Positions 23,127 through 54,007 of a stretch of 64,000 nucleotides of DNA are shown one piece after another. This DNA is from an uncultured Thermoplasmata archaeon (GTDB lineage: Archaea; Thermoplasmatota; Thermoplasmata; SG8-5), in contig CAYHBA010000001.1 of the NCBI GenBank assembly GCA_964354755.1, positions 224,009 through 288,008 on the forward strand, read 5' to 3'. Numbering within the stretch: position 1 is the first letter of the stretch; each line of letters opens with the position of its first letter. A program made the translations under genes and the position numbers. The notes beneath the pieces were generated by a model. That model did not search any database and was not told the origin of the DNA. It was given only the letters and a program-made list of their open reading frames with translations.

Positions 23127-23194
23127 TTAGACATCCAATTAACTTTTCTAATTGGACAGGAAAATATTTACAGTGTCAAGTCCATCCACGCCAT

Positions 23195-23548: not shown

Positions 23549-23562
23549 AATTTATAAAAAAA

Positions 23563-24942: not shown

Positions 24943-25293
24943 ATGACATTATGTAATAAACTGTTAAAGCATGTTAAATGTATGTTAATCATCTTTAAAT
25001 CGTATCATAACTATTTACAGTTAATGGACGAATCATTAGAAATAATCAACTGGTTGAAAAGTGGAAAATATAGAGTTCCAATGCTAAACGAATTACTATC
25101 TCCTAAATCGCCATCTGAACTTGCTGGCATTCTAAATATAAATCGTGCCTCTGTTAGTAGGATAATAAAGGATCTAACTAGTAAAAAATTGATAGATTGC
25201 ACTGAATCTGGTGCCAAAACAAAGTTATGTATTATTAATGAAAAAGGCAAACACATAATAAAACTCTTTTATGATATCGTGGGTGGTGGATGA
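24943..25293 (+). CDS. Winged-HTH transcriptional regulator, possible restriction-modification controller
   Basis: SPSELAGILNINRASVSRIIKDLTSKKLID is HTH-like. It lies immediately upstream of, and overlaps, the putative endonuclease gene. Confidence 0.45.
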   Translation: MTLCNKLLKHVKCMLIIFKSYHNYLQLMDESLEIINWLKSGKYRVPMLNELLSPKSPSELAGILNINRASVSRIIKDLTSKKLIDCTESGAKTKLCIINEKGKHIIKLFYDIVGGG

Positions 25294-26050
25294 TATAAAT
25301 ATTTCATTTCTTAAAAAGGCAATGGTGAATAGACGGGTACCAAAACCCGCTTCAGGCACGTTGTCTGGACACGCTGCTGGAGAACCCTTTGATAAACTTG
25401 TTTATCAATTAATTAAAGAAAAATATCCTAATAAAACTTTTAGGCAATATGAATACTTAAATAAATTATACCTTGATCATCCCAAGGTAACAACTTACAA
25501 AGATAGGTATAGTTTAATTTCATCTCCTGCATTGAGACTTTTATTAAATCGAGGCGTTGGTGTCACTAAAAAATGGACCTCTACTAATCAACTGAAAGAA
25601 AAGCAAGATGATACAGCTGATACATTATTGATTTCTGGAAATTTCCATCATATTATTGATGTAAAAACACGAAATATAGACAAAAAGGCACTTGCACCAA
25701 ATATTATTTCTGCTAAAAAGTTAGCAGAGATGTCTTTAATAATGATTAAAGAAACGGATTTTGATAGTTTTAAAATAACATACGTAGGTGTCGATTGGGC
25801 CCTTGAGGGGGCTTATTTAGTTTGTAGTAAAACAACAATGAAAGATATATTTCAGGCAACTCCCTCTTCCTTGTATATAAATTGGTCTGCAGCCAATCAA
25901 ATCCAGTTCCATGTTGAAAAACTTGACCAAAGTTATAAAAAAGGAATTAAGACTTGGTGTAAAGAATATCTCGCTCATTATGTCGAATCTGCAAATCATC
26001 GAATGAAACACTTTCGTAAGAAATTTATTAAACCATTCGATATCGATTAG
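25271..26050 (+). CDS. Putative type II restriction endonuclease (PD-(D/E)xK candidate)
   Basis: ADTLLISGNFHHIIDVKTR has PD...(D/E)xK spacing. The gene is convergent with and abuts the methyltransferase gene. Confidence 0.45.
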   Translation: MISWVVDDINISFLKKAMVNRRVPKPASGTLSGHAAGEPFDKLVYQLIKEKYPNKTFRQYEYLNKLYLDHPKVTTYKDRYSLISSPALRLLLNRGVGVTKKWTSTNQLKEKQDDTADTLLISGNFHHIIDVKTRNIDKKALAPNIISAKKLAEMSLIMIKETDFDSFKITYVGVDWALEGAYLVCSKTTMKDIFQATPSSLYINWSAANQIQFHVEKLDQSYKKGIKTWCKEYLAHYVESANHRMKHFRKKFIKPFDID

Positions 26051-27835
26051 TTAATAAATCATGGAATCTAAAATTTTATCGATATCTTCCTTTCCTTTAC
26101 TTGATTGTGTTTTAATTATGTGGTCTACTATCTTCACGATTTTATTATGTATGGCAACTTCATTATCATTTGACCAGTCGATTAATCTTATGGGTATTTT
26201 TGAAAGTGGTTTTTCAGAAAATTCAAGTACGCCACCTCTTGCTAAGCCTTGATATTTTAACCAAGTTAATATGGTGTTTGAATTTAGTTGGGCTAGAATG
26301 AATCGAATATCCTCCTTTACCCATTGTTTTAAAACGATACCAGTTACATCTTGTGTCGGATAAAATTGCCCCTGGATATATGAAAAACGAGCATAATTTC
26401 TCTTATCAATTCGTTCTTTACATGGACAGAATATTTTAGAATCGTTTGTATGAAACAATTCCCAATTTCTTAAGAACACCCATTGCCACCAGGGAATATT
26501 ACGATTATAGGAATATCTGGCATTTAATTTTTCTTTGTGTTTTAATAGTTGATTATATACATGTGGCATCTTCTCTTTTAATTCCCTCTCTGAATGAAGA
26601 TTGTTAAGGAAGATATAGGGGGTATATCCAGTAGCCCAATATTGTTTAAGATCATACGCTTTTATTACGTTGATAATGTATGATTTTTCTGTCTTATTAA
26701 GTGTGTTCAAATCTGAGAGTTGGAATGCTCGGTCCAATCCGCTTACAAGACCATTTCCTATTTCTGCAATATCTCCGAGTCTAATATTTCTCTCAAGATT
26801 GAAATCCTCATTTATCTTTAAGGTTGGATTAGAGAGTGTATAGTATTTCGTTCCAGTAAAATTAATTTCGGAACATATATTTTTAGGGATATCCAATTCC
26901 TCTAAATCGTCTTTCGTGAAAAGTTTAGCTAAGCTATAATAATCTGTTTTTCCATTTAATGTACATTTTACTTTAGGAGAATATATGTGTTTTGTTTGTT
27001 TCAAAACAGAAATTATTGCTTCATATTGTGGTGGAATAATGTTCCAGGGCTGTCCGTTATGAAATTGATGGTGAAGGTATGCTTCATAAATATCTTCGTT
27101 CAGATAAGGATTTCTACTTGATAATTTATTGAGTATTACTGAAATTTCCTCTAGATGGGTAGCTGTTAATCGTTTCTTACTATTTACATTTACAACGAGG
27201 ATGGGCATATTTTGTTTTTTGATACTTTTAATGAATTTAAAGATAATGATCGAGGAGGACACATTATCAAATATCCTCATTTCATTAAAATTAATTATGT
27301 GTGTGATAGTTCCATTTTCTGTGAGAAAACGTCGTAATTTGCTGGCATGAAGGGTTTTTAACCAAAATCCCGGAGTAATAAAAATTAATTCTCCGTTTTC
27401 TTTTAATGCGTCTACAGATGAATAAATAAAGGGATATAGTAAATCTGCCAGGCTGTTCAATCGTTCTTTCCAGATTTCATTTTCTGTTAAATATTGTTGA
27501 AAATCTTTAGGCATGTTTTTCCATCTTACATATGGAGGATTCCCAATTACTAAATCGTAATGATTTTGTAATTCGAGCTTTAAGAAATCTGTATATTTCA
27601 TTTCTATCTTGGATTTATTGTCTAATGTATTATCAATTTCAAATGCATCGATATTATGGTAACCTAATTGTGATAAAATTTCAAGAAAGACTCCTTCGCC
27701 TGCTGATGGCTCACAAATTAGTTGTTTTTCCTTTATTGATGAAAGAGACACCATGAACTTGACAACAATTTCTGGGGTGAATATTTGTCCATACTGTTTT
27801 TCTTTTTCAACCATGATTACCACATCAATTAACAT
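26051..27835 (-). CDS. Type II N6-adenine DNA methyltransferase (gamma class, TaqI-like) with C-terminal target-recognition domain
   Basis: Motif X IFTPEIVVKFMV, motif I CEPSAGEGVFL and motif IV VIGNPPYV, in that order. Confidence 0.8.
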   Translation of the reverse strand: MLIDVVIMVEKEKQYGQIFTPEIVVKFMVSLSSIKEKQLICEPSAGEGVFLEILSQLGYHNIDAFEIDNTLDNKSKIEMKYTDFLKLELQNHYDLVIGNPPYVRWKNMPKDFQQYLTENEIWKERLNSLADLLYPFIYSSVDALKENGELIFITPGFWLKTLHASKLRRFLTENGTITHIINFNEMRIFDNVSSSIIIFKFIKSIKKQNMPILVVNVNSKKRLTATHLEEISVILNKLSSRNPYLNEDIYEAYLHHQFHNGQPWNIIPPQYEAIISVLKQTKHIYSPKVKCTLNGKTDYYSLAKLFTKDDLEELDIPKNICSEINFTGTKYYTLSNPTLKINEDFNLERNIRLGDIAEIGNGLVSGLDRAFQLSDLNTLNKTEKSYIINVIKAYDLKQYWATGYTPYIFLNNLHSERELKEKMPHVYNQLLKHKEKLNARYSYNRNIPWWQWVFLRNWELFHTNDSKIFCPCKERIDKRNYARFSYIQGQFYPTQDVTGIVLKQWVKEDIRFILAQLNSNTILTWLKYQGLARGGVLEFSEKPLSKIPIRLIDWSNDNEVAIHNKIVKIVDHIIKTQSSKGKEDIDKILDSMIY

Positions 27836-28030
27836 CTATTTAACTATTGTTTAACATCTATGTTCATCAACTGTGATTAATTCATTCAAATATTTAAGCA
27901 AGAAGGTGGGAAGACACCATAACTAAATTCATCCGAAATGGCTAACTCAAGGTCATCCCGCCGCGAGGCCAGATATTTGCAATTAGGTGAAATACCCTTT
28001 TAATACCACAAGCTGATTTTAATCGGCCTG

Positions 28031-29467
28031 ATGACCAAAGGTTCTGGAACAGGCAGGATGAGCATGGCCGGCATCAGCGAGATGCACCGCTCCAAGTGGA
28101 TGGGCGGCGGCCAGCAGTTTTTTCCGATGTCCCAATATTCCGGGAAATCCGGGGGGGCTTTTCAATCCGGGATCACCGACAAGAAGCTCATCGACATGTT
28201 TCTGAGAGACGAGATGGCTTACCGGATTGTCCGCGATTTCGCTGTTGATCCTCTGAAGAAGGGCTTTTCTGTCCAGGCCGCAGAGGATGACGGGGGGAAG
28301 TTCAAGGAGGATTGCTCGAAGATTCTTTCCTCTGTCGATACCATCAAGAAGCTGGGTTCTGCCAGGGTGCTGTCCAGACTGGCTGGGTTCAGCTTATTGC
28401 TGCTTGGGACAGAAGATTCCGCGCCTTCCGACAAGCCACCGGAGAACGTCAGGCGGCTGGCGTTTCTCAAGCCGGTGAGCAAGTGGAATGTCCGGGCCAT
28501 GCACCAGGATACTGATGCGTCTAGTCCTACCTTCGGGGAGATTATAGCGTATGACATCGCCAGCACCCTGCAGGGCGGGCTTACCGACACCAAAACAGTT
28601 TCTGCTGCCAGGGTCATTCACATTACGAACGACGAATTTGATTCTGATCCTCGCGGAGTCTCCACGCTGTTTCCTCTCTTCGATATCCAGAACATCAAGA
28701 AGGAAACCGATGCTGCTTTGGGGGAATCGGCTGTCAGGAACGCCGAGCCCTGGCGCGTTGTTACATTGCCTCCGGATGCGGACGAGGCCGAGGCGCAGGC
28801 TGTGGAAGATGAACTCTATGGTGGCAGGCGCAACATCTTCATCCAGCCGGGAACAGGGAACGACCAGACGGATTACAAATGGAAGCAGTTGCCCCCGAAC
28901 ACCATCAATCCGAAGGACTGGGTTGACTGGGTGAACACCCGCATTGCAGGCGGCTCCGGAATGCCGAAGACCATGCTCGAAGGCGCGACTCCCGGCAGCG
29001 TCACAGGTTCATGGGTCAGCCAGGCAGACTATTGGAAGAAATGCGGGGAGATGCAGGAAACGGATATTACGCCTATCATCGGCGAGTTGGTCCGCAGACT
29101 GCAGGGCTGGGGGCTTCTGGAAGAAAAGGATTTCGAGGTCTGCTGGCCGACATTGTGGGAGCTGGACGACAAGGAGCTTGCCGCAGTCGCCAACCTTCAG
29201 GCCAATGCATTTGCCAAGGTCGTGGCCGCGGCCAAGGACTTGTTCGAATTGCCGAAGGCCGGGGAACTCATGACCTGGGGCATAGACCAGCAGGGATTCT
29301 ATCTGGAATACGGAAAAGATTCTGGGCGGTACTACCCGATAGCAAACATGAGCAAGACCGGAATGAAGGTGCAGACCGGAGCCATCCGGCAGAGGAAGAA
29401 TGTTAAAAACAATCCTCAGAATGAAAGGATAAGGGAAGAACACGCGGGAGGCGGAACGCATGTCTAA
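28031..29467 (+). CDS. Putative portal protein
   Basis: 478 aa. It is the first gene of the morphogenesis block and is followed by scaffold/protease and capsid genes. The call rests on size and order only. Confidence 0.5.
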   Translation: MTKGSGTGRMSMAGISEMHRSKWMGGGQQFFPMSQYSGKSGGAFQSGITDKKLIDMFLRDEMAYRIVRDFAVDPLKKGFSVQAAEDDGGKFKEDCSKILSSVDTIKKLGSARVLSRLAGFSLLLLGTEDSAPSDKPPENVRRLAFLKPVSKWNVRAMHQDTDASSPTFGEIIAYDIASTLQGGLTDTKTVSAARVIHITNDEFDSDPRGVSTLFPLFDIQNIKKETDAALGESAVRNAEPWRVVTLPPDADEAEAQAVEDELYGGRRNIFIQPGTGNDQTDYKWKQLPPNTINPKDWVDWVNTRIAGGSGMPKTMLEGATPGSVTGSWVSQADYWKKCGEMQETDITPIIGELVRRLQGWGLLEEKDFEVCWPTLWELDDKELAAVANLQANAFAKVVAAAKDLFELPKAGELMTWGIDQQGFYLEYGKDSGRYYPIANMSKTGMKVQTGAIRQRKNVKNNPQNERIREEHAGGGTHV

Positions 29468-31504: not shown

Positions 31505-32497
31505 ATGAACAACAACATACCGAAAGGAGTGGTTCTGAACCAACCGGTTTCAACGGTCTTCAACGCGAACAACCCTGGCGCGGCCTTCGGGAAGTTCCCG
31601 ATGGCGTCTGCGAACAGGCTCGCGAACGTGCTGACGAACAGCATGCTCTCCACGGAGGAATGGAGGGAGCTGGAGACGGAAGTCAAAATCGCCGCCAGGG
31701 AGCAGATGGTCGGCCGGATGCTATTCGGCAGGGACAAGACAAACCCGCTCGGCTTGGGAATCGAACGCTACGACTTCGACAAGCTGAGCGAGCTTGGCGA
31801 GGCAGTAAGCTCCTACGGCTTCCAGGAGACAGCTAGGGACATTCCCCACAAGACGCGCGCCACAGTCAACCTGCTCGTGCATCAACTGGACTGGTTCATC
31901 AACCGCAGGACGCTGGAAGCAACAATCGCGAGCGGCCAGAGGATGGACCTCGCGACCATGAAGGGCGCGGCCTACAGGGTGGCCCAGAAGGAGAACGTCT
32001 GCTTAATAGAAGGGCTGACCCAGGACGGCACGAACTACGATGAAAGCGGCCTGTACCAAGGCGCAGGGAACTCCGAGGCGACAAGCTTGGATTACGGCAC
32101 TGTGGCGAACATAGTCACATCAATCAACAACGCCGGCGCACTTCTCAAGACCGACAACATCCCGGAGCCGTACCAACTTGTCCTCAATCCGACCCAGGAA
32201 GGCCAGACCCGCGCCCTGATATCGGGCAGCGACAAGTCATACTACCAGTGGATAGTCGAGAGGATAGGAATCTCCGGAACGCCCGGACAGATATTCTCGA
32301 CGCCGTCCATGACAGCAGGCAACGGAATCCTCATGGCCACGCCGGGCAAGGACTGGTTCAAGCACATCGTCGGATGGGACTTGGACACGTGGGTTTGCGA
32401 AGTCGGACCGATGAGGGATCTGTGGGCGAAGACCTTCATAATCAGCGCGGTGGCGTACTACGACAACAACTCGGTCTGCCAGCTGACGACCATCTAA
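31505..32497 (+). CDS. Putative major capsid protein
   Basis: 330 aa, strong RBS, in the canonical position after the scaffold. Size is typical of HK97-fold capsid proteins. Confidence 0.5.
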   Translation: MNNNIPKGVVLNQPVSTVFNANNPGAAFGKFPMASANRLANVLTNSMLSTEEWRELETEVKIAAREQMVGRMLFGRDKTNPLGLGIERYDFDKLSELGEAVSSYGFQETARDIPHKTRATVNLLVHQLDWFINRRTLEATIASGQRMDLATMKGAAYRVAQKENVCLIEGLTQDGTNYDESGLYQGAGNSEATSLDYGTVANIVTSINNAGALLKTDNIPEPYQLVLNPTQEGQTRALISGSDKSYYQWIVERIGISGTPGQIFSTPSMTAGNGILMATPGKDWFKHIVGWDLDTWVCEVGPMRDLWAKTFIISAVAYYDNNSVCQLTTI

Positions 32498-36534: not shown

Positions 36535-36774
36535 ATGGCAAAGAAAAATAATGACAAAATCCCGGCCTATTTCAGGAACACAGGAGGCCCGCAGATAGTG
36601 ACCTTGCACGGCCCTGTGAAAGCCGGCGAGGTGATGACCACCGATAATCCGACAGTAGCGAAAGGACTCAGGAGCCATTCGCGTTATCGGGAGGTTTCAA
36701 AATCGGAATATGACAAATACAAGAAGACTGCAAGCCCAGAGTTCAGAACCGGGGAGGAGACATGGCGAGAATAG
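36535..36774 (+). CDS. Small hypothetical protein
   Basis: 79 aa with a strong RBS (ggaggaacATG). Confidence 0.3.
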   Translation: MAKKNNDKIPAYFRNTGGPQIVTLHGPVKAGEVMTTDNPTVAKGLRSHSRYREVSKSEYDKYKKTASPEFRTGEETWRE

Positions 36775-37718
36775 TGAAGTACGTCGGACTCGGCGAGGAA
36801 GCCACAGCCCTCACCGAAGCCAGCTCAAAGAATGTTTATCTCGATGTCATAGACTTCGACGCCGGCCAGAACCAGCAATGGGAGAACGAAGGCGGCGTGG
36901 CCAACAGCTATGTTTCGGACAAGAACATGATGGCCGAAGACGCATCGCCCAGGTTCAACTTCCCAATCGGGCCGGAGAGCGGCATCGGCTGGCTTTTGAA
37001 ATGGTTTCTCGGAGACCCGACAAGCACGCAGCAAGAGACCAGCATCGCCTACGAACACGAGTTCGAATCCGATGACGCGCTGAAGACATTCACCGTTTTC
37101 GCGGGAAGCGAAGACCTCACAGAGGAACCGTATCCTGGCCAGTCCGGAGACGTGCTTGGCTTATCCTGCCAGAAAGGCGGGGTGCTCATGGGTTCATTGT
37201 CCGCTTACGGTTTGAACAAAGCCGCTGACAACGCACTCGCGGCGGCAAGCTTCAGCGGCCTGAAATCGTTCAGGTTCAGGGACATGACGTTCAAAGCAGA
37301 CACCGTCGCCAAATCATCCTGTGTCCAATCGATGTCCATGAAACTGGACCAGGGGCTTGCGAAGAACATGCACACGTCCGGAAGCGCAGCCCTGCAAAAC
37401 CGGGCCAAGCACACCGTCAGACTCATCACCGGAACCGTGGAGTTCAGCAAGTACGACTCGGCCCTGCGCACCGCTCACAACAACAAGACCGCCGTCGCGC
37501 TCGAGTTCGCATGGACCGGCGCCTTGATCGTTGATACGTATTACTACAAACTGACAATCACGCTTCCCTCGGCATATATCACAAGCTATCGCCATCCAGT
37601 CAAAGGCCGCGCCATCGAGATGCACACATTCGGTTTCGAGGCAAAGAACGATCCGACCGAGGGCTCCGAGATCAATGTGAAACTGGTCAACACGGAAACC
37701 GATTATCCAGATGCCTGA
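36762..37718 (+). CDS. Putative major tail protein
   Basis: 318 aa, immediately followed by overlapping chaperone-like ORFs. Assigned by position only. Confidence 0.35.
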   Translation: MARIVKYVGLGEEATALTEASSKNVYLDVIDFDAGQNQQWENEGGVANSYVSDKNMMAEDASPRFNFPIGPESGIGWLLKWFLGDPTSTQQETSIAYEHEFESDDALKTFTVFAGSEDLTEEPYPGQSGDVLGLSCQKGGVLMGSLSAYGLNKAADNALAAASFSGLKSFRFRDMTFKADTVAKSSCVQSMSMKLDQGLAKNMHTSGSAALQNRAKHTVRLITGTVEFSKYDSALRTAHNNKTAVALEFAWTGALIVDTYYYKLTITLPSAYITSYRHPVKGRAIEMHTFGFEAKNDPTEGSEINVKLVNTETDYPDA

Positions 37719-37730
37719 GCCGGAGGAAAA

Positions 37731-38204
37731 ATGACAGAAAGAATCGGCCGCCGAAGAAAAGACTGGCATGTCGAAGTCGAGGAAGAGGACGGTACATTCA
37801 CCACAATCAGCGGGAGATATGCCGGGCAGATGGACATAGCGTTTTCGTTGATGTCCGCAGAGCAAAACCCCAGGACATACATCGCCATGCTCCAGAAAGA
37901 ATTGTTCCAGCGCTGCGTAACTTCTCATAAGATGTTTGCCAATCCGCTGGACAAACATGTTCTCACTGAGGAAACATTCGATTCATCCAATCCGACGCAC
38001 ATGCTCATCAGCGAGCTGGAGGACGACGCCCAACGTTCGCTGCTCTGGACAATGGCCCCGTTCATGAAAGAGCTTGCCGAGAAAGAATCTGCTCCGGAGC
38101 AGAAGGAGGGCCAGGCGCTTGCCGAGAGATTTCGACAGGAAAAACCTCATCAGGATAACGAAGCTTGCGAAACTGACAGGCCAGATGCCGCACGTTCTGG
38201 CTGA
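37731..38204 (+). CDS. Putative tail assembly chaperone
   Basis: Acidic 157-aa protein whose 3' end overlaps a second ORF in another frame (38074..38397), reminiscent of the G/GT frameshift arrangement. Confidence 0.35.
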   Translation: MTERIGRRRKDWHVEVEEEDGTFTTISGRYAGQMDIAFSLMSAEQNPRTYIAMLQKELFQRCVTSHKMFANPLDKHVLTEETFDSSNPTHMLISELEDDAQRSLLWTMAPFMKELAEKESAPEQKEGQALAERFRQEKPHQDNEACETDRPDAARSG

Positions 38205-38397
38205 ATACTATAACGCCCACCAATGGGAATACGGCTTTGACATCGCGGCATACGAAATTATGTCCGATTCGGAAAAGATAACGACCAGCCGACGAAACAT
38301 GGGCGTCCAGAACTTCACCGAGGAACAATGCGACAAGATGGTTCAAGAACGAAATGCCTGGATGAAAAACCTCAGGGAGAAATCATGGGACTCGTAA
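38074..38397 (+). CDS. Overlapping ORF, possible frameshift extension of the tail chaperone
   Basis: Overlaps 37731..38204 by ~130 nt in a different frame. Confidence 0.25.
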   Translation: MPRKNLLRSRRRARRLPRDFDRKNLIRITKLAKLTGQMPHVLAEYYNAHQWEYGFDIAAYEIMSDSEKITTSRRNMGVQNFTEEQCDKMVQERNAWMKNLREKSWDS

Positions 38398-40850
38398 GAC
38401 AGATGGAAGACCTGCAAATCGTGTTCACCAGCCGGGATGAACTGACAGAGAACACTCTGACAGCCGAAGACATCTCGGAAGTCAGGATAAACGAACAGGA
38501 TCTGGTCGGCGGCAGGGCGAAGATAAGAATCAGGAACAAAGCCGGCAGCAATAAATCGAAATTCTACGAGGGCTACAAGGTCGATGTAAAAATCCAATGG
38601 GTCGGCGGCTCTTTAACAAGTTTCTGGCTCGGGAGAATCACCAAGAAACTGCCTGCGAATGATTTGTATCAACGGCAATGCATCACACTCGACGCAGTCG
38701 ATGAAGGCACATGGACGCTAAGCGGAATTAATACAACAACTTATCACACGCATGCAAGCGTCGATGTCGGAGTCATTGTAAAGGCACTTTTGGACACATA
38801 CACAACTTTCGACACAGCCAACATCAACCAGACCACAGGAACGACAATCAGCATTTCCATCCAGACCGGAAGAAACATCATGGACATAATCCGGGAACTC
38901 ATCAGCGGGACAAACAATTCATTTTACATTGATGAGACCGGGCATGCCTACCTTATTGAACGTGGAGCCAGCTCTTCCTATACTTTGGGAGAACTCAGTG
39001 GAAGAACCTTCGATGTGGACCGCGACATCTACAGCATCAAGAATGACATTTTGGTCAAAGGCTCATACATCGCCGACGCCACAAGCACCAGCCAGGAAGG
39101 CCCTCCGGACGGGTACTGGAACATAGACAACAGCACCTACAGACGGAAAATAAAATTCACGCCGACCGGCACGATGATACAGGCAGCAATCATGGCATAC
39201 AATTCCGCAGCCAGCGACCATAACCTCATGATACGCATCCAGCCTGATAACGGCGCAGGAACCGGGCCAGTGGATATCGCGAACTATTCCGCAGACATAG
39301 CGACCGTATTCGTACCGAACTCGGTAATAAACACAGAGGAAGCCGAGGCAGTCGGCGGGGATATCAACGCAAACCTGATCGACGGCGTTGTCGATTACTG
39401 GATTATCGTCGAAAGCGACAGCGCGACCGGGAACTTATTGACGGTCGGATATAAAACCGTCTCCGCTGTCAACACCCTGATTTACGAAGTCTATACAAGG
39501 GAAGAACTGATAAACACGCCCGGAACCGGGACGGACGCGGAGAGTATCGCTAAGCATGGAACTCGGGCTTACACACATATTGACAGAACGCTCTCATCAC
39601 AGGACGAAGTCGATGAGAAGGCCGCAGCTCTGCTCATCGAATACAAAGACCTTGCCAACACAGTGAAAGGCGAATTGCTCACAGACATATTCACCGGCGC
39701 CCATGCGAGAGTCGGCCAGGGCGTCACTGTCAATTTGCCGGATGAAGAGGTCGATGGCAACGTTCTTGGCATCATCGGGATAGTCTGGTCCATCCGGACC
39801 GAGAACGGAACATATCTGGACATCCCGAACTTGATACTCTCGGACACACCGCCTCCGCTGGATGATGCGGATTGGGCGGCACAGATCGGAAGACAGATGG
39901 ATTCCATCAGCAATTCCGTCTCGGTCATTCAGGCAACATCCAGAAGTATTCCGATGCACGCAATCGGCGGGACCAGGCACAGCCCCAGCACATTGGCAGC
40001 TCTAAATGCCCTGATATCCGACAATGATTTAGTCGGCGACGATGACGCCAGGCTCAGCGACGCCAGAACACCTCTGGCTCATGACCACGAAGGAGTCGAT
40101 ATTAAAAGCACAGGGGAAACTGGCACAGCTAAATTCTTAAGGGTAGACGGAGACGATACTTGCTCATGGCAGCCAATCCCGGCAGCCGACCCTCCGGAAG
40201 GAACGGCTGTGAAGTCCACAGGGGAAACCGGGACCTCGAAATTCTTAAGGATTGATGGCGACGATACCTGCTCGTGGCAGGAACCATCTTCACTGGACAC
40301 TACAGCCATCCATAAGGCCACAGACGGTGAAATAGCCGCTATGGATGATAAGACCCCGCCAGTGGATGCTGATATGTTAGTGATAGAAGACAGTGAGGCC
40401 AGTGATGCCAAGAAGAAGCTGACCCTGGCCAATCTAAAAGCATATATCGGTGGCGGGGCCAGTGGTGAAGAAGTGGTCATTACCTGCTATAATGACACTG
40501 GTGACCAGATAATTAAAGGGTCCATCTGCTATGTGTCTGATGATAACGGTGGCACACCCATGATAGCCCTGGCCAAGGCTGATGCCGTGGCCACCACCAG
40601 GGGCATGCTGGTTATGCCTAAGGATGACATAGACGACGAAGGCACCGGTGAATGCGTGGTGATAGGCCCGGTGGATGAATTTAGTGAACTAACTACAGGC
40701 ATGCCAGTCTATATAAGCGAGGCATCAGCCGGGGTCATCACACAGACCATACCCAGCACTGCAGGCCACTATGTCAGGATAGCGGGCTATGCTCTCAGTG
40801 CAACAGTGGTGTACTTCCTGCCTGATGGCACCTACATCAAAAGAAGGTGA
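38385..40850 (+). CDS. Large tail/baseplate-fibre protein with two C-terminal 24-aa tandem repeats
   Basis: 820 aa and beta-rich. Repeats STGETGTAKFLRVDGDDTCSWQPIP and STGETGTSKFLRIDGDDTCSWQEPS. The protein is not alpha-helical, so it is not a classical tape measure. Confidence 0.45.
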   Translation: MGLVRQMEDLQIVFTSRDELTENTLTAEDISEVRINEQDLVGGRAKIRIRNKAGSNKSKFYEGYKVDVKIQWVGGSLTSFWLGRITKKLPANDLYQRQCITLDAVDEGTWTLSGINTTTYHTHASVDVGVIVKALLDTYTTFDTANINQTTGTTISISIQTGRNIMDIIRELISGTNNSFYIDETGHAYLIERGASSSYTLGELSGRTFDVDRDIYSIKNDILVKGSYIADATSTSQEGPPDGYWNIDNSTYRRKIKFTPTGTMIQAAIMAYNSAASDHNLMIRIQPDNGAGTGPVDIANYSADIATVFVPNSVINTEEAEAVGGDINANLIDGVVDYWIIVESDSATGNLLTVGYKTVSAVNTLIYEVYTREELINTPGTGTDAESIAKHGTRAYTHIDRTLSSQDEVDEKAAALLIEYKDLANTVKGELLTDIFTGAHARVGQGVTVNLPDEEVDGNVLGIIGIVWSIRTENGTYLDIPNLILSDTPPPLDDADWAAQIGRQMDSISNSVSVIQATSRSIPMHAIGGTRHSPSTLAALNALISDNDLVGDDDARLSDARTPLAHDHEGVDIKSTGETGTAKFLRVDGDDTCSWQPIPAADPPEGTAVKSTGETGTSKFLRIDGDDTCSWQEPSSLDTTAIHKATDGEIAAMDDKTPPVDADMLVIEDSEASDAKKKLTLANLKAYIGGGASGEEVVITCYNDTGDQIIKGSICYVSDDNGGTPMIALAKADAVATTRGMLVMPKDDIDDEGTGECVVIGPVDEFSELTTGMPVYISEASAGVITQTIPSTAGHYVRIAGYALSATVVYFLPDGTYIKRR

Positions 40851-43101: not shown

Positions 43102-44748
43102 TTATTTCGACTCTTTTCCCATGAACGGATACTTGTAATCCGTAGGTGGCAGCAGGTTCTCCTTGATTGTTCTTGGGCTGACCCAGCTCAGGAGATTGAG
43201 GTATGAGCCTGACTTGTCGTTTGTTCCGGAGCACCTCGCGCCTCCGAACGGCTGCTGGCCCACGACTGCGCCCGTGCATTTGTCGTTTATGTAGAAGTTG
43301 CCAGCCGCGTTCCGCAGTATCTCTGAAGCTTTTACAATGGCATTTCTGTCCTTCGCGAATATCGCTCCTGTAAGAGCATAAGGCGATGTCTGGTCGCAGA
43401 GCCGGAGCGTCTCTTCGTACATCTTGTCCTTGTAGACATAAATCGTCAGTACGGGACCAAATATCTCCTCCTCCATGGTCTTGAAGTGCGGGTCCAGAGC
43501 CTGTATGAGGGTCGGCTCGATGAAGTATCCCTTGGATGAATCGGCCTTTCCGCCAAATATTATCTTTGCGTCCTTGGACTGACGCGCTATTTCAATGTAC
43601 CCAGAAATAGTCTCGAATGCCGATTTGTCTATGACCGCATTCACAAAATTACCAAAGTCCTGGACATCGCCGGTTTTAATCTCCTTAAGCATCTGGATGC
43701 ATTTCGCTTTAACGGGCTCCCAGAGGGATTCAGGGATGTAAGCCCTGGATGCGGCAGAGCATTTCTGGCCCTGGTACTCGAATGCGCCCCGGACCAGTGC
43801 CGTGGCGACTGAATCAGCCTCGGCCGAAGGGTGTACGAAGATGAAATCCTTGCCGCCGGTCTCGCCCACCAGCTTCGGATAGGATGAATACACACTTAGA
43901 TTCTCTCCGAGCGTTCTCCAGAGCTTGCTGAAGACTGCTGTCGAGCCAGTGAAATGAATACCAGCTAACCTTCGATCGTTCAGTGCGATGTTTCCAACAA
44001 CCTCGCCGGAGCCGGGGACGAAGTTTATCACGCCGTCCGGAAAACCCGCTTCCTTGAATATCTCCATTAGGAAATAGTTTGAGAGGAGCGATGTCGTCGC
44101 TGGCTTCCAGAGCACGACATTGCCCATTATCGCCGGAGCGGTCGGAAGATTTGCTCCAATGGCGGTGAAATTGAACGGAGTAACCGCGAAAACGAAACCC
44201 TCCAGTGGTCGGTATTCAACTCGGTTAAGCGTTCCGAGCGAGGCTTCCGGCTGGTCTGCGTAAATCTTCTGGAGATAATAGGCATTGAATCTAAGAAAAT
44301 CTATTGTCTCGCATGCTGCGTCAATCTCTGCCTGGAAAGCGTTCTTGCTTTGACCAAGCATGGTCGCGGCATTGATGAGGAACCGGTGTTTCTTGGAAAT
44401 CAATTCAGCGGCCTTGAGCGCTATTGTCCCGCGTTCCTCCCAGGGAAGGGCTTCCCAGTCGGATTTTGCCGCGATTGCGCAGTCTATCGCTTCCTTGACC
44501 AGTTCAGGTGTCACTTTGTGATATTCGGCAAGTATGTGTTTATGGTCATGGGGCATGACGACTTTGCCCTTGTCGCCTGTCGGAACCTTTCTCCCGCCGA
44601 TGACTGGCATGATTTCTATCTTGCTGTTCTCTATATCTCTCATTGCCTGGATGATGGCTTTTCGCTCCGGACTTCCGGGGGCGTAGTTGAGAACTGGTTC
44701 GTTCGCTGGCCTGGGTATGTTGATGATTGATTCATTCATAATAAACAC
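43102..44748 (-). CDS. 1-pyrroline-5-carboxylate dehydrogenase (aldehyde dehydrogenase superfamily, RocA/PruA-like)
   Basis: The N-terminal NEPVLNYAPGSPERKAI motif is typical of the P5CDH subgroup. ALDH catalytic Cys/Glu regions are present. GC is visibly lower than in host genes. Confidence 0.75.
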   Translation of the reverse strand: MFIMNESIINIPRPANEPVLNYAPGSPERKAIIQAMRDIENSKIEIMPVIGGRKVPTGDKGKVVMPHDHKHILAEYHKVTPELVKEAIDCAIAAKSDWEALPWEERGTIALKAAELISKKHRFLINAATMLGQSKNAFQAEIDAACETIDFLRFNAYYLQKIYADQPEASLGTLNRVEYRPLEGFVFAVTPFNFTAIGANLPTAPAIMGNVVLWKPATTSLLSNYFLMEIFKEAGFPDGVINFVPGSGEVVGNIALNDRRLAGIHFTGSTAVFSKLWRTLGENLSVYSSYPKLVGETGGKDFIFVHPSAEADSVATALVRGAFEYQGQKCSAASRAYIPESLWEPVKAKCIQMLKEIKTGDVQDFGNFVNAVIDKSAFETISGYIEIARQSKDAKIIFGGKADSSKGYFIEPTLIQALDPHFKTMEEEIFGPVLTIYVYKDKMYEETLRLCDQTSPYALTGAIFAKDRNAIVKASEILRNAAGNFYINDKCTGAVVGQQPFGGARCSGTNDKSGSYLNLLSWVSPRTIKENLLPPTDYKYPFMGKESK

Positions 44749-44989
44749 CGTTATTCTGGGCCAAGTATATCGGCTATATTAATGTGATGTTGAACCAATT
44801 TCAATACGTTGAATGATGTGATTTTTCACGACCTTGGGATGCAAAAGCGTATAATTATAATGTTTCAATTATATATTCGAGCCAGCCATCTATGATTCAA
44901 ACTTCGTCTGATGCAACAACGGACGGCAGAAGGCACATACAACGGAACCGCTGGCCCTCCCCCCACCCGCACCGCGCTGGAACCCCTTT

Positions 44990-45335
44990 TCCTATCATTC
45001 CAGTCTTTCGTTCATGCCTGCTTCCGGTCTGGCCACCTTTTCTCCCGTGAATCCGGTGAGAAAAGTTGTCTCAAACAAACATCGGCACCTGTGCCTCGGG
45101 TGTAAAGGAAGCAGAGGCGAGCATGAACGACCAGCCAGTTTGGCTTGGATATTCCCGCGAATATCGGGAATGGAAAGCCTGGAACGAGTCGGTGAAGGAG
45201 CTGGTTTGAATGGCTATGGAATCGATTAGCTGTGATGGCATGCCAGAGGTCTTTCCGGGGGATTTCCCCCGGAAGCCACCACAGCCTTTCCATAATCCAT
45301 TCAACACGCAAGCCAGCTTCGAGGTGATTCAATGA
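44990..45335. repeat. Repeat R1, copy a (copy b at ~46728-47060): structured leader plus two conserved tiny ORFs
   Basis: The first ~230 bp are near-identical between copies (ccagtctttcgttcatgc...ggaagcagaggcgagcatgaacgacc...gagctggtttgaatggc). The second small ORF and the rest of the unit diverge, as detailed in the R1 finding. Confidence 0.85.
45123..45209 (+). CDS. Candidate 28-aa Trp-rich peptide (MNDQPVWLGYSREYREWKAWNESVKELV)
   Basis: Conserved in copy b (MNDRPIWLSYSREYREWKAWNESVKELV) with two synonymous and three conservative changes. Preceded by two hairpins and GGAAGCAGAGG. Its stop is immediately followed by the ATG of a second small ORF (45210-45335). Confidence 0.35.
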   Translation: MNDQPVWLGYSREYREWKAWNESVKELV

Positions 45336-45604
45336 GGGCATCGTCGCCGCACTGGCTTCGGGTGCTTCAATATCTGAATCACTTCAATCCAGACGACCTG
45401 GATTTCGTGGCACCCTTCGACATAACGCAGAACGGGATCGCCGATGCCCTCGGAATCACCCGGCCGCATGCGAGCCTCGTGTTAAAGAAACTCATCACGG
45501 ATGGTTTCGTGGAGCGAAAGATGCTCCATATCAGAGGAGGCCGCAGACGAAGGCTGGCTTACATTATCAGCCCCTCTGGGATTCAGGTGGTGAGAGCTTG
45601 CTAG
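45332..45604 (+). CDS. Winged-HTH transcriptional regulator
   Basis: 90 aa. ADALGITRPHASLVLKKLITDGFVERK is an HTH plus wing. Its ATG overlaps the stop of the upstream tiny ORF (ATGA). Confidence 0.5.
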   Translation: MRASSPHWLRVLQYLNHFNPDDLDFVAPFDITQNGIADALGITRPHASLVLKKLITDGFVERKMLHIRGGRRRRLAYIISPSGIQVVRAC

Positions 45605-45939
45605 GCCAAGTGACGCTCGGCCAGCTCGCAGATGTTACGCGGGGGAATCGTGACATCTCCCTGCAAGTCGATGATATCCTGATCCGGCGGGTGTCCGGCT
45701 CCATAGAGAAACTTGGCGAACCTGTGATAATTGGCGACAGTCGGACACCCTGGCCGGGGAATCCGGACACCTTCATTCATATTCGAGTGTCCAGGAGAGA
45801 TGTACTATTCCCCCGCTATCTGTACTATCTTCTCCAGCACCTGAACCAGAGCGGCCAGTTCCAGCGCATCGCGCAGGGTTCGGTCCAGCAGTTCATCCGC
45901 GTCCGTGACGTCGAGGCGATCGGGCTGAGGCCGGGGTGA
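45598..45939 (+). pseudogene. Fragment of a type I restriction-modification specificity subunit (HsdS half)
   Basis: VTLGQLADVTRGN...DILIRRVSG...LFPRYLYYLLQHLNQSGQFQRIAQGSVQQFIRVRDVEAIGL matches the HsdS target-recognition-domain pattern. No hsdM or hsdR nearby. A shorter copy of the 3' end occurs at ~47170-47255. Confidence 0.6.
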
Positions 45940-46190
45940 CGGCGCCCGACTGCTCGGGCGGCACCAATAAGCGCTGGCTTTGCTGCCAGAGACGAACGCA
46001 AAGCCAGGCGATTAAAGGTGCCGCCCTCGCACGACGATGGTCGTGCGCGCGTTGTTAACATACTCCTTACATACGATATGCAATTATATAGCTACAAGCC
46101 TCGTCTGTAAGGACGGGGTTATGTTAACTAATACTAACGGATATAAACTATATATACCTGTTATCGGATAATGGGAACACGTGACTTGGC
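45846..46190. repeat. Repeat R2, copy a (copy b at ~47170-47530): HsdS 3' fragment, hairpin element, inverted-repeat module and promoter
   Basis: Long direct repeat. It contains a nested hairpin (45955-46027), a 75-bp element with GTTAACAT/ATGTTAAC termini (46054-46128), a TATA-like box (aaactatatatacc) and a conserved leader (ggataatgggaacacgtgacttg). Each copy precedes a different gene. Confidence 0.85.
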
Positions 46191-46246
46191 GTAGCGGAGG
46201 AGTGCCCGGTTAGGAACGTGAATTTGGGGATGGCCAGTTAGGTGAA

Positions 46247-46612
46247 GTGATGATAATTGAACTCTACCTAGACTCAGATAAAGGCGCTGTGAAAGGTGAA
46301 GGTACTGGAAACCTTCCATGGTCTATGAGAGCGGGTTGGACACCAACAAAGGATTCTTCACTTAATGTTAAGATGGCATTCGTCAATTTTACCGATGAAG
46401 AAAATGAATTGAGGACTCGACTTGACCGAATTGCTACCGAACACAATCTCGAAATAATTCTATATGACACAGCGCGGACTCGGTATGCAATGCGAGCTTT
46501 TTTCAAAGGAGTGAAGATATTGCCAACCGTAATTATTGGTAAACATATACTGACTGGCAAAATTACTGAAGCTCAGATAATCAAAGTAATAAATGAGCAA
46601 TCTAATGTTTGA
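46247..46612 (+). CDS. Thioredoxin/glutaredoxin-fold protein without CxxC, paralog of 23195..23548
   Basis: HNLEIILYD...MRAFFKGVKILPTVIIGKHILTGKITEAQI aligns with the 23195 product. AT-rich and driven by the R2 promoter. Confidence 0.5.
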   Translation: MMIIELYLDSDKGAVKGEGTGNLPWSMRAGWTPTKDSSLNVKMAFVNFTDEENELRTRLDRIATEHNLEIILYDTARTRYAMRAFFKGVKILPTVIIGKHILTGKITEAQIIKVINEQSNV

Positions 46613-47548
46613 AAATAGATACAAAAAGTAGGCTGCAACATCCGCCTTTTGCTATACTTAACAACCATACTTAACATCACCGCTAGCCCGCCCCCTCCTC
46701 CGCCCTGCACTGGCCCTCCTCTACCCCCAGTCTTTCGTTCATGCCCTGCTTCCGTCCAGCCACCCTTTCTCCCGTGAATCCGGTGAGAAAAGTTGTCTCA
46801 AACAAACATCGGCACCTGTGCCTCGGGTGTAAAGGAAGCAGAGGCGAGCATGAACGACCGGCCAATTTGGCTTAGCTATTCCCGCGAGTATCGGGAATGG
46901 AAAGCCTGGAACGAGTCGGTAAAGGAGCTGGTTTGAATGGCAATGGAACCAGTCGACTCCCTTGATTGTGATTGGCCGGGGAGTGTTCCCTGGCCATTCC
47001 CGCCTGAAAAGGCGGTCTCCTCTGGGGGGCGGGCGCGGTATTGCCTAACGTGAGTCTGGCGCGCCCACGCGCCAGTGTTGTACCGAGCGAGCAGGTGAGG
47101 GCGAGTTTTCTTGTTTACTGAATATTTTTCTTTTGGAGCCCGAGCAAGCGCAGCGAGGTCAAAAGAAAAATACTCGCGGCCAGTTCCAGCGCATCGCCCA
47201 GGGGTCGGTCCAGCGATTTATTCGGGTTCGGGATGTCGAGGCGATCGGGCTGATTCTGGCTTGACATCCAGCTACACTCGGGCGGTGCCAATAAACGCTG
47301 GCTTAGCTGCTAGAGACGAACGCAAAGCCAGGCGATTAAAGGCACCGCCCTCGCACGCCAGGCAAGGCTGGTCGCGCGTGCGCATTGTTAACATACTCCT
47401 TACATACGATATGCAATTATATAGCTACAAGCCTCGTCTGTAAGGACGGGGTTATGTTAACTGATATTAACTGATATTAACTGATATAACCTATATATAT
47501 CTGATATCGGATAATGGGAACACGTGACTTGCGAGGGAGTGAATAGCT

Positions 47549-48478
47549 TTGAAGGAGATGGGCCTGACTGGCATCGATATTAGAAACTATGATAAAACGA
47601 TAGATATCGACAATTTTGTCCGGTTTTACAATCATGCTCATTCGGATTATCCATCACATAATACTCTAACTGCTGACATCGCGCAGCAATATATTTTTGG
47701 AAAACCAGGGTATGATTCTCAATCACATTTTCTAGCAATCAAGGATTCAGAGATCATCGGAAGTGTCAAAGGGGAGATATTTGCTGGAAAAAGAGGAATT
47801 ATTGGAATGATAATTAGTCCAGAACACCGTATGCTTGGGATTGAAGATGTCCTTTACAAGCTGGTTATGAATTACTATCGTCAGAAAGGATTGGATGAAG
47901 CCGGAGTCCATGTTGATTCGTCATTTCCAAAAATGATTGATTTCTACAAGTCACATGGATTTACCATTTGGAAAATATCATACCAGATGTCATGTAAATT
48001 AAAGCAATCTATGAAAACTAGTTCTAAAATGGCAGCAGGTTATCATATTGGACCATCCAATCAAAATGAGATTGATAAGGTAAGGAATGTCTTAGCAATT
48101 GGTTTTGAAAATGAGCATGTAGAGGAAATAATTGGTGAATTTGACCGACTTCTCCAAGAAAAGGGTTTTGATATAAGTGGAATAATTGTGGCAAGGAAAA
48201 GCAACGATGTCATTGGACTGATATTTAATTTCATCCATCCAGCGATGCCGGATAGAGGATTTGTTACATGGATTGCTGTGATTCCATCAGAGAGAAACAA
48301 GGGTGTGGGAAAATCCCTATTATCATCGGGATTGTCTTGGATGAAAGAGAAAGGCGCTTTGACTGTGGAATTGAATGTCGATTTAAAGAATCCCAGCGCA
48401 TTAAAATTATATCAAGACTGTGGGTTTGAAGTAGTATCTGAAACTAATATTATGCAAAAGGCCCATCTCCGTTTGTAA
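47549..48478 (+). CDS. GNAT-family N-acetyltransferase (two GNAT-like halves)
   Basis: Acetyl-CoA-binding-like motifs (KRGIIGMIISPEHRMLGIED and RGFVTWIAVIPSERNKGVGKSLL). AT-rich and driven by the R2 copy b promoter. Confidence 0.65.
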   Translation: MKEMGLTGIDIRNYDKTIDIDNFVRFYNHAHSDYPSHNTLTADIAQQYIFGKPGYDSQSHFLAIKDSEIIGSVKGEIFAGKRGIIGMIISPEHRMLGIEDVLYKLVMNYYRQKGLDEAGVHVDSSFPKMIDFYKSHGFTIWKISYQMSCKLKQSMKTSSKMAAGYHIGPSNQNEIDKVRNVLAIGFENEHVEEIIGEFDRLLQEKGFDISGIIVARKSNDVIGLIFNFIHPAMPDRGFVTWIAVIPSERNKGVGKSLLSSGLSWMKEKGALTVELNVDLKNPSALKLYQDCGFEVVSETNIMQKAHLRL

Positions 48479-48524: not shown

Positions 48525-48730
48525 CCGCGTGGATGCCTCGCCGGAGGATTGCGTCCTTGCACTGCCGCTCATCGAGCAATCCGCACGGATGCGAGCCACC
48601 GTTTTCCCAACGTTACGGCGAAGCAGCCACGAGTACAACGAAGGGACGGGGAGTGTGAACGAAAGGCTTATTATCTGCCTTTCGCATTCACTTGGGGCAA
48701 GTGGCTACTGGCTAAGGCTGTGTGCCCGTT
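48525..48730. repeat. Repeats R_A/R_B, copy 1 (further copies at ~49500-49670 and ~50620-50800)
   Basis: R_A (gaatgcctcgccggag...caagccacc...ttacggcgaagcagc.acgagtacaacg.agg..gggag) and R_B (acgaaag.cttatta...gcattcacttgg...ctgtgccc) recur around the nucleotidyltransferase and membrane-protein genes. The last copy ends in a long palindrome (ggggcggggagcgggtttaatgca...tgcattaaacccgcacaccgcccc). Confidence 0.8.
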
Positions 48731-50614: not shown

Positions 50615-50948
50615 AGAGTATACGAGAGAACCGCTTGAATGCCTCGCCGGAGCTTTGTATCCTGGTAGCGACGAGATTCGCCAACAAAGCGTACGGTTGC
50701 AAGCCACCATATTCCTGATGTTACGGCGAAGCAGCTACGAGTACAACGCAGGGGCGGGGAGCGGGTTTAATGCACAATGCGAATTGGGGTTGCATTAAAC
50801 CCGCACACCGCCCCGACCCTTCATTCAACGTGAAGACACCTTGAAGCTAATTGCTTCTACATCTTTTCAGGTAACGCCTCAATATTCCACGAGTATTCCT
50901 CAGGGATGCAGCGCCCATGGGGGCCTGTGGCTTGTCCTTGTTGAGTGA

Positions 50949-52960: not shown

Positions 52961-54007
52961 ATGAGCCCCTCGAAGCCGCTCAGCTGGGGTATAATCCCCA
53001 ATCGCTGCAGCCAAATTATTTATCGAAGCAATCGATACGGAGGGAGGCAGATGCCAAGACAGGAAACGTATCTGTGCCGAATAGATCAATGGGAAGCAAA
53101 ACTGAACCAGAGCAGGAAGTCGCCATACACGGTCGCCAGCTATACCGCGGCGGCCAGGTTGGCGCGCAGGATACTGATGGAGAACGGAATCCAGACAGCC
53201 CCCAAGAAACTGTCGCAGGAGGATATCGAACTCATTTATCGGAACCTGCACAACAGCGCCTACAAGATGGGCGTGAAGGACTTCCTCAGGTTCGTGGAAA
53301 ACCCGTATGTGGAACGCGCGGACACCGGCCCGGCTCCGAAGTGCATGAACAAGGCGGACTGGTTGGACAGGGACACGGACGAAGACCGAATAGTCTGGGA
53401 GACGGCGATGAACTCGCCGCTGTTCGAGAAGGTCATTGTCCACTTCGAACTACACCTGGGAATGAGGCGGGGCGGCTGCAAGCGGCTGCTGATGTCCTAC
53501 TACTTGGGCAGACACATGATAGTCCTGGAAAAAGGACGGGAAGGCGGAAAGTTCCGAACCATCCCAGTACACCCGTTCACCAAGGACATCATGCGGGAAG
53601 TGAAGGACTTCAGGGCGGACACCCTGGAGCCGCACGCTTTCAGGAACGGCCTGAAGGTCCCAGAAAAGGTCATCGCCTGGCCGAACCACCACAAGATAAC
53701 CACCCCCTCGGACAACACCCTGAATATACTGCTGAAGAACGTCAGCAGAAAGGCGGGGATAGAGTTCAGCCACCACACCCTGCGGAGGACCTGCGCCAGG
53801 AACCTCTACTTAGAGATGGTGGAACGGGGCAAGGTGAACCTAGCTGCGATACAGCGGTTCTTAGGCCACGAATCCATGGAAATGACCGTGAAATACTTGG
53901 GCATCAACATGGTCGACATGGAGGAGATGATGTCGATAGGCTCCCAAAGGTTCCAAAAACCGATAAATTCGCCGGACTGCACCGAAACGCCAGTAGCCAG
54001 CCTTTAG
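52961..54007 (+). CDS. Tyrosine recombinase/integrase
   Basis: Box I GMRRGGCKRL (Arg), HHTLRRTCARN (His-x-x-Arg), GHESMEMTVKYL (His...Tyr). The stop lies 1-2 bp before the attR arm. The start may be the internal ATG ~90 nt downstream. Confidence 0.8.
   Translation: MSPSKPLSWGIIPNRCSQIIYRSNRYGGRQMPRQETYLCRIDQWEAKLNQSRKSPYTVASYTAAARLARRILMENGIQTAPKKLSQEDIELIYRNLHNSAYKMGVKDFLRFVENPYVERADTGPAPKCMNKADWLDRDTDEDRIVWETAMNSPLFEKVIVHFELHLGMRRGGCKRLLMSYYLGRHMIVLEKGREGGKFRTIPVHPFTKDIMREVKDFRADTLEPHAFRNGLKVPEKVIAWPNHHKITTPSDNTLNILLKNVSRKAGIEFSHHTLRRTCARNLYLEMVERGKVNLAAIQRFLGHESMEMTVKYLGINMVDMEEMMSIGSQRFQKPINSPDCTETPVASL

Follow-up and report, generated by a model that had tools for sequence, protein, structure and literature searches.

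The 64,000-nucleotide stretch analyzed here (the window), contig CAYHBA010000001.1 of an uncultured Thermoplasmata archaeon, carries a head–tail provirus, and one of its accessory islands contains two copies of a long, nested hairpin. The fold of this hairpin is kept by selection, as shown by compensatory base changes. Our tentatively favored reading, drawn from analogy with viral stem-loop cassettes, is that the hairpin serves as a structure-selected module boundary, insulating an operon and acting as a junction for cargo exchange. The two copies and the repeats that hold them are as follows.

45956–46026, hairpin copy A, nested and imperfect (from sequence, fold, and covariation)
47280–47350, hairpin copy B, with the architecture of copy A (from sequence and fold)
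45851–46188, plus strand, long direct repeat A, partner of 47176–47531 (from sequence comparison)
47176–47531, plus strand, long direct repeat B (from sequence comparison)
46028–46047, second short GC hairpin after copy A, CGCACGAC-GATG-GTCGTGCG (from sequence and fold)

Copy A is built from a 10-bp outer stem, GGGCGGCACC (45956–45965) paired with GGTGCCGCCC (46017–46026), and a 9-bp inner stem, TGGCTTTGC (45975–45983) paired with GCAAAGCCA (45998–46006), closed by an apical loop of 14 nt (45984–45997). Between the stems lie an A·A/A·A internal loop, a 3-bp TAA/TTA stem, and a 3-bp CGC/GCG stem with a bulged G. The outer stem of copy B, GGGCGGTGCC (47280–47289) with GGCACCGCCC (47341–47350), differs from that of copy A by a CA-to-TG change on the 5′ arm that is matched by TG-to-CA on the 3′ arm; the adjacent pairs 7 and 8 accordingly read C–G and A–T in copy A and T–A and G–C in copy B. 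The interiors differ by three point changes, one of which (T to A at 47305) breaks an inner-stem pair without compensation, leaving A·A. Folded as single strands, copy A reaches −58.3 kcal/mol (z = −6.3) and copy B −54.4 kcal/mol (z = −4.6), and none of 200 shuffles was as stable as either. A covariance-model search with filters off placed the copy number at two in the 64 kb. The original prediction, which had described two nested hairpins related by a compensatory change, was right about the stems and about the double-sided CA/TG swap. The ~72-nt element that it described is not free-standing, being part of a direct repeat of ~340 nt.

No Rfam 15 family matched the window at its gathering score, and a permissive search of 44900–47600 returned only noise (E > 2). 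A CRISPR (clustered regularly interspaced short palindromic repeat) assignment was rejected, with just two copies 1.3 kb apart and a match of E = 3.4. Also rejected was a coding function for the minus-strand open reading frame (ORF) that crosses the hairpin at 45825–46061: loops of 12, 14, and 15 nt shift its frame, and no ORF across the hairpin is conserved among the copies.

Covariation between the two window copies alone is anecdotal, but it is solid with 15 distinct copies, the other 13 of which come from metagenome-assembled genome (MAG) and metagenome contigs of Methanomassiliicoccales. L-numbers below denote these related contigs, which bear homologues or hairpin matches. Twelve copies, termed type 1, were collected, and a covariance model made from them retrieved three diverged type-2 copies.

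L001, 1664–1746, type-2 hairpin copy
L016, 7225–7308, type-2 hairpin copy
L010, 5132–5212, type-2 hairpin copy

Double-sided changes occur in 7 of 28 pairs (17 cells) of the 12-sequence alignment and in 12 of 25 pairs (29 cells) of the 15-sequence alignment. Neither the observed covariation score nor the number of double-changed cells was attained in 500 column shuffles; the count of double-changed pairs was attained by 2 of 500 shuffles with 15 sequences and by 32 of 500 with 12. When the pairing partner was slid by 1–3 columns, the paired cells fell from ~85% to 32–44%, and double changes to at most 7 cells. Positions 6–8 of the outer stem occur as GCA/TGC, GTG/CAC, ACA/TGT, AAG/CTT, and AAA/TTT. 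Most of the inner stem and the middle stem are replaced in the type-2 copies and still pair, the inner stem having been rewritten from CTGGCTTTGC/GCAAAGCCAG to GCGGTTCCGC/GCGGAGCCGC. Overall, ~86% of cells are paired, the unpaired ones including a recurrent T·C in the inner stem, the A·A of copy B, and two adjacent mismatches in L004. The original prediction had proposed that the helix-preserving changes reflect a selected secondary structure, to be checked by searching related genomes and scoring covariation; the 13 further copies strengthen this proposal. It had also held that one-arm changes lacking their complement would speak against it, and these appear locally, in a few cells, and not globally.

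The position of the hairpin is regular too. In the window, each copy follows a gene unit that begins with a conserved leader, and a cargo gene lies beyond.

44942–45209, plus strand, conserved structured leader that starts the leader-to-hairpin unit of copy A, including a 28-aa ORF at 45123–45209
45332–45604, plus strand, MarR/Lrs14-like winged-helix (wHTH) gene, 90 aa, found with the hairpin most regularly at other loci
45598–45939, plus strand, small ORF of 113 aa resembling a target-recognition domain (TRD), with its stop 16 nt before the hairpin
46247–46612, plus strand, cargo gene between the hairpin copies, 121 aa, no family
46686–46936, plus strand, leader and 28-aa ORF of copy B
47549–48478, plus strand, cargo gene after copy B, double GNAT acetyltransferase

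The unit before copy A consists of the leader, the 28-aa ORF, a 41-aa ORF, the wHTH gene, and the TRD-like ORF. The unit before copy B is decayed, retaining the leader and the 28-aa ORF but no more of the TRD-like ORF than its final 27 codons. Across the collection, the stop of a same-strand gene lies no more than about 60 nt ahead of 13 of the 15 copies; the gene concerned is a wHTH gene or remnant in seven cases, a TRD-like ORF or remnant in four, and another gene in two. In 10 of the 12 type-1 copies, a wHTH gene or remnant lies immediately upstream or is separated only by a TRD-like ORF. The hairpin thus occupies a fixed operon-end position, and a T/C-rich tract (CCGCACTTCTTTCTT...) stands between stop codon and hairpin after wHTH genes. 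What follows is variable. Six copies, both window copies included, precede a same-strand gene, and six a convergent one; there are at least nine different right flanks, and the downstream cargo is unrelated between loci (type I restriction–modification, GmrSD, MmeI-like, integrase, GNAT). TATA-like boxes lie ~15–130 nt downstream of the window copies and of L001a, L004, L008, L016a, and L020, and six copies face convergent genes.

The TRD-like ORF resembles the HsdS target-recognition domain weakly (NCBIfam MADS5-S, E = 0.049; hhalign to a real HsdS, E = 0.036), and its AlphaFold model has a pLDDT (predicted local distance difference test) score of 51. Four metagenomic clusters preserve it as a small ORF, at 55–87% identity, so it is not a pseudogene fragment, and the earlier view of the upstream ORF as an HsdS fragment gives way to that of a small conserved ORF. 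The hairpin as the tail of an hsdS family was likewise rejected, since the gene ahead of the hairpin is a wHTH gene or its remnant for seven type-1 copies and is of yet other kinds for two type-2 copies. A variable/template repeat pair of a diversity-generating retroelement was also considered and set aside: the differences between 45851–45940 and 47176–47265 involve all bases and are not A-specific, and the scanned ORFs include no reverse transcriptase.

Within each ~340-nt repeat are 90 nt from the end of the upstream ORF, the nested hairpin, and the second short GC hairpin, whose counterpart after copy B (47352–47382) has an interior 9 nt longer. The left 90 nt of repeat B (47176–47265) are the 27-codon remnant of the TRD-like gene tail. 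A 72-nt block of repeat A with a TATA-like box (46052–46123) is 100% identical in repeat B. Past it come TTAAC-type short repeats, a second TATA-like box, and then GGATAATGGGAACACGTGACTTG, a stretch that stops 27–60 nt short of the next gene. Each copy also has another repeat upstream of it (45000–45221 versus 46727–46948, 93%). Within repeat B, a 10-nt unit, TTAACTGATA, occurs three times (47446–47480) and is degenerate in repeat A (46123–46145); since a TATA-like box follows closely, the repeated units may form an array of protein-binding sites. The 100%-identical block includes a promoter-like CTTACA-17-TATAAT (minus strand, 46111→46083 and 47444→47416) aimed at the hairpin, and its TATA box could serve plus-strand transcription.

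Comparison between loci places breaks of homology at both hairpin bases, the check that the original prediction had suggested for a rearrangement site. L004 and L015 are 93–100% identical through the TRD-like gene and the hairpin and are unrelated from the first base past the stem. L001a and L020 are 93–95% identical through the wHTH gene and the T-tract and then diverge, their hairpins being only ~75% identical and their right flanks unrelated. The similarities of the wHTH gene and of the hairpin are incongruent, at 0.94 versus 0.81 for window and L015 and 0.70 versus 0.87 for window and L001a. Cargo lies between direct copies at three loci: the window (A/B), L019 (a/b), and L001 (c/a/b). In L001/L002 and L010/L014, a remnant of a terminase 3′ end (55–75 nt, NDDCVDSLMMALWG...) begins within 6–8 nt after the type-2 hairpin.

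L001, 1747–1800 (equivalent to L002, 4304–4360), terminase 3′-end remnant
L010, 5060–5131, minus strand, terminase 3′-end remnant

L002 also has an intact terminase gene, its own 3′ end kept, 4.2 kb upstream of the type-2 hairpin. The remnant beside the hairpin and the intact gene upstream suggest that the block which the hairpin closes was inserted into the terminase 3′ end and replaced that end. In L010/L014, a solo 3′ half-hairpin is fused to a rearranged leader, the break falling at the junction of loop and 3′ arm. Four short-read contigs end inside the hairpin, ~78–82 nt after the wHTH stop and near the end of the identity shared by copies a and b. We rejected these ends as biology; they look like an assembly effect arising about where the two copies stop being identical.

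The conserved leader may be a cis-regulatory 5′ untranslated region (UTR) or an operator. Its core (45030–45125 and 46757–46852; also L001, 3190–3270; L019, 1430–1500; L022, 20–90) reads TCTCCC..GGTGAGAAAAGTTG..CACCTGTGCCTCGGGTG..AAGGAAGCAGAGGCGAG-ATG, and over 64 nt the leader of the MAG locus L010 matches that of the window at 98% identity. The small stems within the leader seem to covary from one locus to another (ACACC/GGTGT versus GATGTCC/GGGCATC, for instance). The 28-aa ORF, MNDQPVWLGYSREYREWKAWNESVKELV (45123–45209 and 46850–46936), belongs to no known family and is conserved in both units and in L001, L008, and L006. Imperfect inverted repeats stand on either side of the leader core (45001–45026 and 45107–45135; L010, 1264–1391). 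In L010/L014, the segment between them is inverted and joined to the solo hairpin 3′ half, so that the leader segment may be invertible or prone to rearrangement.

The element is narrowly distributed. Homologues of its genes are rare (four clusters for the TRD-like ORF and nine for the wHTH protein), and their contigs bear the same hairpin. Every hairpin-bearing contig long enough to judge has a wHTH gene or remnant; the wHTH homologue in L021 has no hairpin. A pattern scan of one genome per species over 185,579 species found four stretches, in three MAGs only, of which two are labeled Methanomassiliicoccales (UBA147, UBA280) and one "Methanobacteriota archaeon". A metagenome pattern scan gave one true locus, L014, arranged as L010; its other candidates, L012 and L013, were chance matches in coding sequence. 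IMG/VR held no true match in two DNA-pattern and three protein-based scans, L023 being a chance match in a coding region. Our literature searches turned up no description of this hairpin. It is a new element family of a generally known kind, namely a viral module-boundary stem-loop or a folded recombination site.

All copies sit in accessory or defence islands of proviruses that have terminase, portal, and capsid genes. In the window, host genes flank the provirus on both sides, and the hairpins lie in the second of two accessory islands, at 44.9–51 kb.

18210–19916, large terminase, GpA type
28031–29467, portal
31505–32497, HK97-type capsid
36762–40850, tail genes
52961–54007, plus strand, tyrosine recombinase near the inferred right end of the provirus, XerA-like and far below family cut-offs

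The related contigs are also proviruses or viruses, but L002 and L016 carry Terminase_6, unlike the GpA type of the window, and the DNA-level match between the window and related contigs is confined to the leader-to-hairpin unit. The unit is thus shared between unrelated viral backbones, two of which are represented here.

On the reading we tentatively prefer, the hairpin would be the 3′-terminal element of a small mobile regulatory unit in the accessory islands of Methanomassiliicoccales head–tail proviruses. The unit would run from the structured leader through one or two tiny ORFs, the wHTH regulator, and sometimes the TRD-like ORF to the hairpin, which would stand between this unit and the promoter of whichever unrelated cargo gene comes next. 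By folding, the palindrome would insulate the transcription unit upstream of it or bring that unit to an end, and cargo modules would be swapped, duplicated, or deleted by recombination at the hairpin, proposed as the site of exchange because it is the only sequence common to otherwise unrelated neighbors. We infer both this insulating or terminating activity and that recombination at the hairpin is the cause, rather than a by-product, of the junctions.

By our comparison, the closest functional analogy is with the PeSLs of T4-type phages, repeated cassettes of promoter and stem-loop in hyperplastic regions that shuffle genes by recombining with one another (PMC2839356). A similar motif of TATA box and inverted repeat occurs in HGTV-1, a haloarchaeal tailed virus (PMC3950731). 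Like PeSLs, the hairpin is a repeated intergenic stem-loop near a putative promoter in hyperplastic accessory regions of a tailed virus, its copies bracket variable genes, and junctions of insertion or replacement map to the copies. Unlike PeSLs, it is long (~25 bp) and nested, with invariant unpaired bases and a better-folding bottom strand, and the promoter part is not conserved between loci.

Several observations weigh against a boundary element. There are only 1–3 copies per element, rather than one per gene as in PeSLs, which number about 50. The eight contigs of the L001-type virus, from different samples and 99.97–100% identical, display no cargo polymorphism. A T/C-rich tract is the usual archaeal termination signal and after wHTH genes lies before the hairpin, so operon transcripts may never include the hairpin. 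A terminator scan found no T-run after the window copies, and in the flanks of 16 loci (15 distinct hairpins) the only T-run is on the minus strand after L019b. The boundary reading also does not account well for the invariant unpaired bases and the bottom-strand bias. CCAATA and TAAAGG around the A·A/A·A internal loop, AAC at the 3′ side of the apical loop, and AACGCAAAGCC on the 3′ arm are all invariant, and strictly invariant unpaired bases exceed the needs of a mere terminator or homology patch. With RNA parameters, the minus (bottom) strand is the better-folding one in 15 of 15 copies, and with DNA parameters in 11 of 15; the RNAalifold values are −29.7 (minus) and −23.2 (plus); and A·C mismatches of the plus strand (G·U on the minus) outnumber G·T by roughly 12 to 3. 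The bias is suggestive, not decisive, as the copies are non-independent and part of the energy asymmetry comes from loops: copy A, which has no mismatches, still differs by 5 kcal/mol between strands.

The original prediction had also offered a terminator. Intrinsic terminators and repetitive extragenic palindromic (REP) hairpins are likewise GC-rich, lie a few nucleotides past a stop codon, and often stand between convergent genes. The hairpin differs from them in having no U-tail, a T-rich tract upstream, conserved loop and internal-loop bases, and an archaeal host. With no T-run following it, it does not qualify as a bacterial-type terminator, and hairpins are not known to be needed for archaeal termination.

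A folded recombination site, resembling integron attC or the folded attP of CTX phage, is unlikely but bears directly on the features just listed. Here the bottom strand would extrude as an imperfect hairpin, a recombinase (a tyrosine recombinase of the provirus or some other enzyme) would read the conserved internal loop and bulged bases, and cassettes would be inserted or excised at the base. Integron attC sites have been assayed separately as top and bottom strands (PMC9668308). Set beside the attC sites of archaeal integrons (PMC9668308), the hairpin resembles them in having an imperfect stem in which structure is kept over sequence, an unpaired spacer, and one-arm bulges; it too lies 3′ of gene units in one orientation, with cargo boundaries at its base and non-equivalent strands. 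The bulge is on the 3′ arm in every copy, the 5′ arm accepts changes that the 3′ arm does not, and certain unpaired bases are invariant. Same-orientation copies bracketing cargo, homology that ends exactly at the hairpin base, the solo half-hairpin with its rearranged leader, the type-2 copies exactly at the terminase junction, and the better-folding bottom strand all fit such a site. So do the non-matching arms of L004, L008, and L019b, as expected of hybrid sites, and a tyrosine recombinase gene at 805–1791 of L004, 370 nt from its hairpin.

The same comparison exposes differences. The hairpin lacks the R″/R′ cores (RYYYAAC/GTTRRRY), an integron integrase, and an attI/Pc platform. Its basal stem is GGGCGRYRCC/GGYRYCGCCC, and its invariant bases by the internal loop are CC/GG, not AAC/GTT. 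Its cassettes are multi-gene with their own promoters, inside proviruses, in arrays of 2–3 sites and with 1–3 sites per element. Against integrase_gron, whose cut-off is 265, the recombinase of L004 reaches 19 bits, and the window recombinase has no such match; the two are generic XerA-like enzymes unrelated to each other, the one in the window lies 7 kb away, and no recombinase is constantly linked to the hairpin. Neither excision variants nor circles occur among the eight contigs of the one L001-type virus, and clustered junctions are expected for any conserved patch between variable modules. Formal membership in attC, one of the options first raised, is excluded by the missing cores and IntI; attC-like behavior is retained by the junctions at the base, the unpaired bases, and the bottom-strand fold. 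In this form the hairpin might be, though again we consider it unlikely, an integron-independent attC analogue that captures defence and accessory cassettes, the terminase 3′-end insertion included, with the wHTH protein or a tyrosine recombinase as its reader.

It is more doubtful that the hairpin functions in minus-strand RNA, as a 3′ UTR or terminator of convergent cargo genes or as a cis-antisense transcript to the 3′ end of the wHTH or TRD-like gene, like lambda oop RNA. Such a role would suit the greater stability of the minus strand as RNA in all 15 copies, the G·U-compatible mismatches that favor this strand, and the six copies followed by convergent genes. At L019, ~40 nt separating the hairpin from the stop codons of two convergent genes are common to both copies, and the minus-strand run past L019b is T6; in the window, the minus-strand CTTACA-17-TATAAT is directed at both copies. 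The six copies that precede same-strand genes, the two window copies among them, do not suit this role, and the A-rich side of the window TATA box, resembling a transcription factor B recognition element (BRE), is oriented for plus-strand transcription. The element keeps its orientation relative to the gene upstream, whatever the direction of the gene downstream, and the baseline strand asymmetry stems partly from loops rather than wobble pairs.

We give little credence to a duplex-DNA operator or centromere-like site for a wHTH dimer, in which the palindrome would be two half-sites and the covariation would reflect symmetric recognition. The constant association with the wHTH gene, both in the 10 type-1 copies noted above and on every contig that can be judged, agrees with this view, as do the symmetric invariant blocks CCAATA and TAAAGG. 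However, copies A and B, presumably served by one protein, differ by a compensated CA/TG swap that symmetric recognition does not predict; ~45 bp would separate the half-sites; most stem positions are changed in type-2 copies, which still pair; and the wHTH homologue of L021 occurs without a hairpin.

An adjacent double substitution, such as the one that turns GGCACC into its own reverse complement GGTGCC, is the expected signature of intrastrand template switching in quasi-palindromes. A functionless or selfish quasi-palindrome, either similar to REPs and miniature inverted-repeat transposable elements (MITEs) or kept complementary by such switching, would explain this swap and the discrete ~80-nt unit with breakpoints on both sides, but it is the least probable reading, as the hairpin is not dispersed (two copies in 64 kb, four stretches over 185,579 species genomes, none in IMG/VR), always occupies equivalent positions, and shows neither the target-site duplications nor the flanking direct repeats of MITEs, while its invariant unpaired bases and asymmetric bulges persist over ~25–35% divergence.

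The window also has repeats and genes of other kinds. A first island of low GC content (31–41%; 20000–28000), between the terminase and portal genes, contains defence genes.

20212–22068, GmrSD, first defence island
25271–26050, HincII-like endonuclease, first defence island
26051–27835, Eco57I-type methylase, first defence island

This island has short direct repeats of its own (22758–22802/24814–24858 and 23643–23689/23852–23898). Between the tail module and the second island lies a full-length aldehyde dehydrogenase gene (43102–44748, minus strand), which could be cargo or a host gene separating two elements. A second kind of direct repeat, ~135 nt long, follows the GNAT gene and a 299-aa cargo ORF (48525–48653 versus 50631–50761), one copy ending in a 24-bp hairpin (inverted repeat 50751–50814). 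We tested whether these repeats, at 48.5 and 50.7 kb, are fragments of the aldehyde dehydrogenase gene left by an att-type duplication, and they are not derived from it. Upstream of a DUF835-TPR gene, 68-nt direct repeats (13495–13562 and 13638–13705, 82% identical) each have an internal hairpin, GGACGAGAAA...TTTCTCGTCC.

Little is known about the viruses of methanogens or about how their defence and accessory islands are assembled. The hairpin provides a compact, covariation-supported cis element, with a covariance model from 15 copies, at the meeting point of a conserved regulatory unit and variable cargo. As a recombination site, it would represent a new means of cassette capture in Archaea; as an insulator or terminator, it would be a rare example of a boundary in archaeal transcription that depends on a hairpin.

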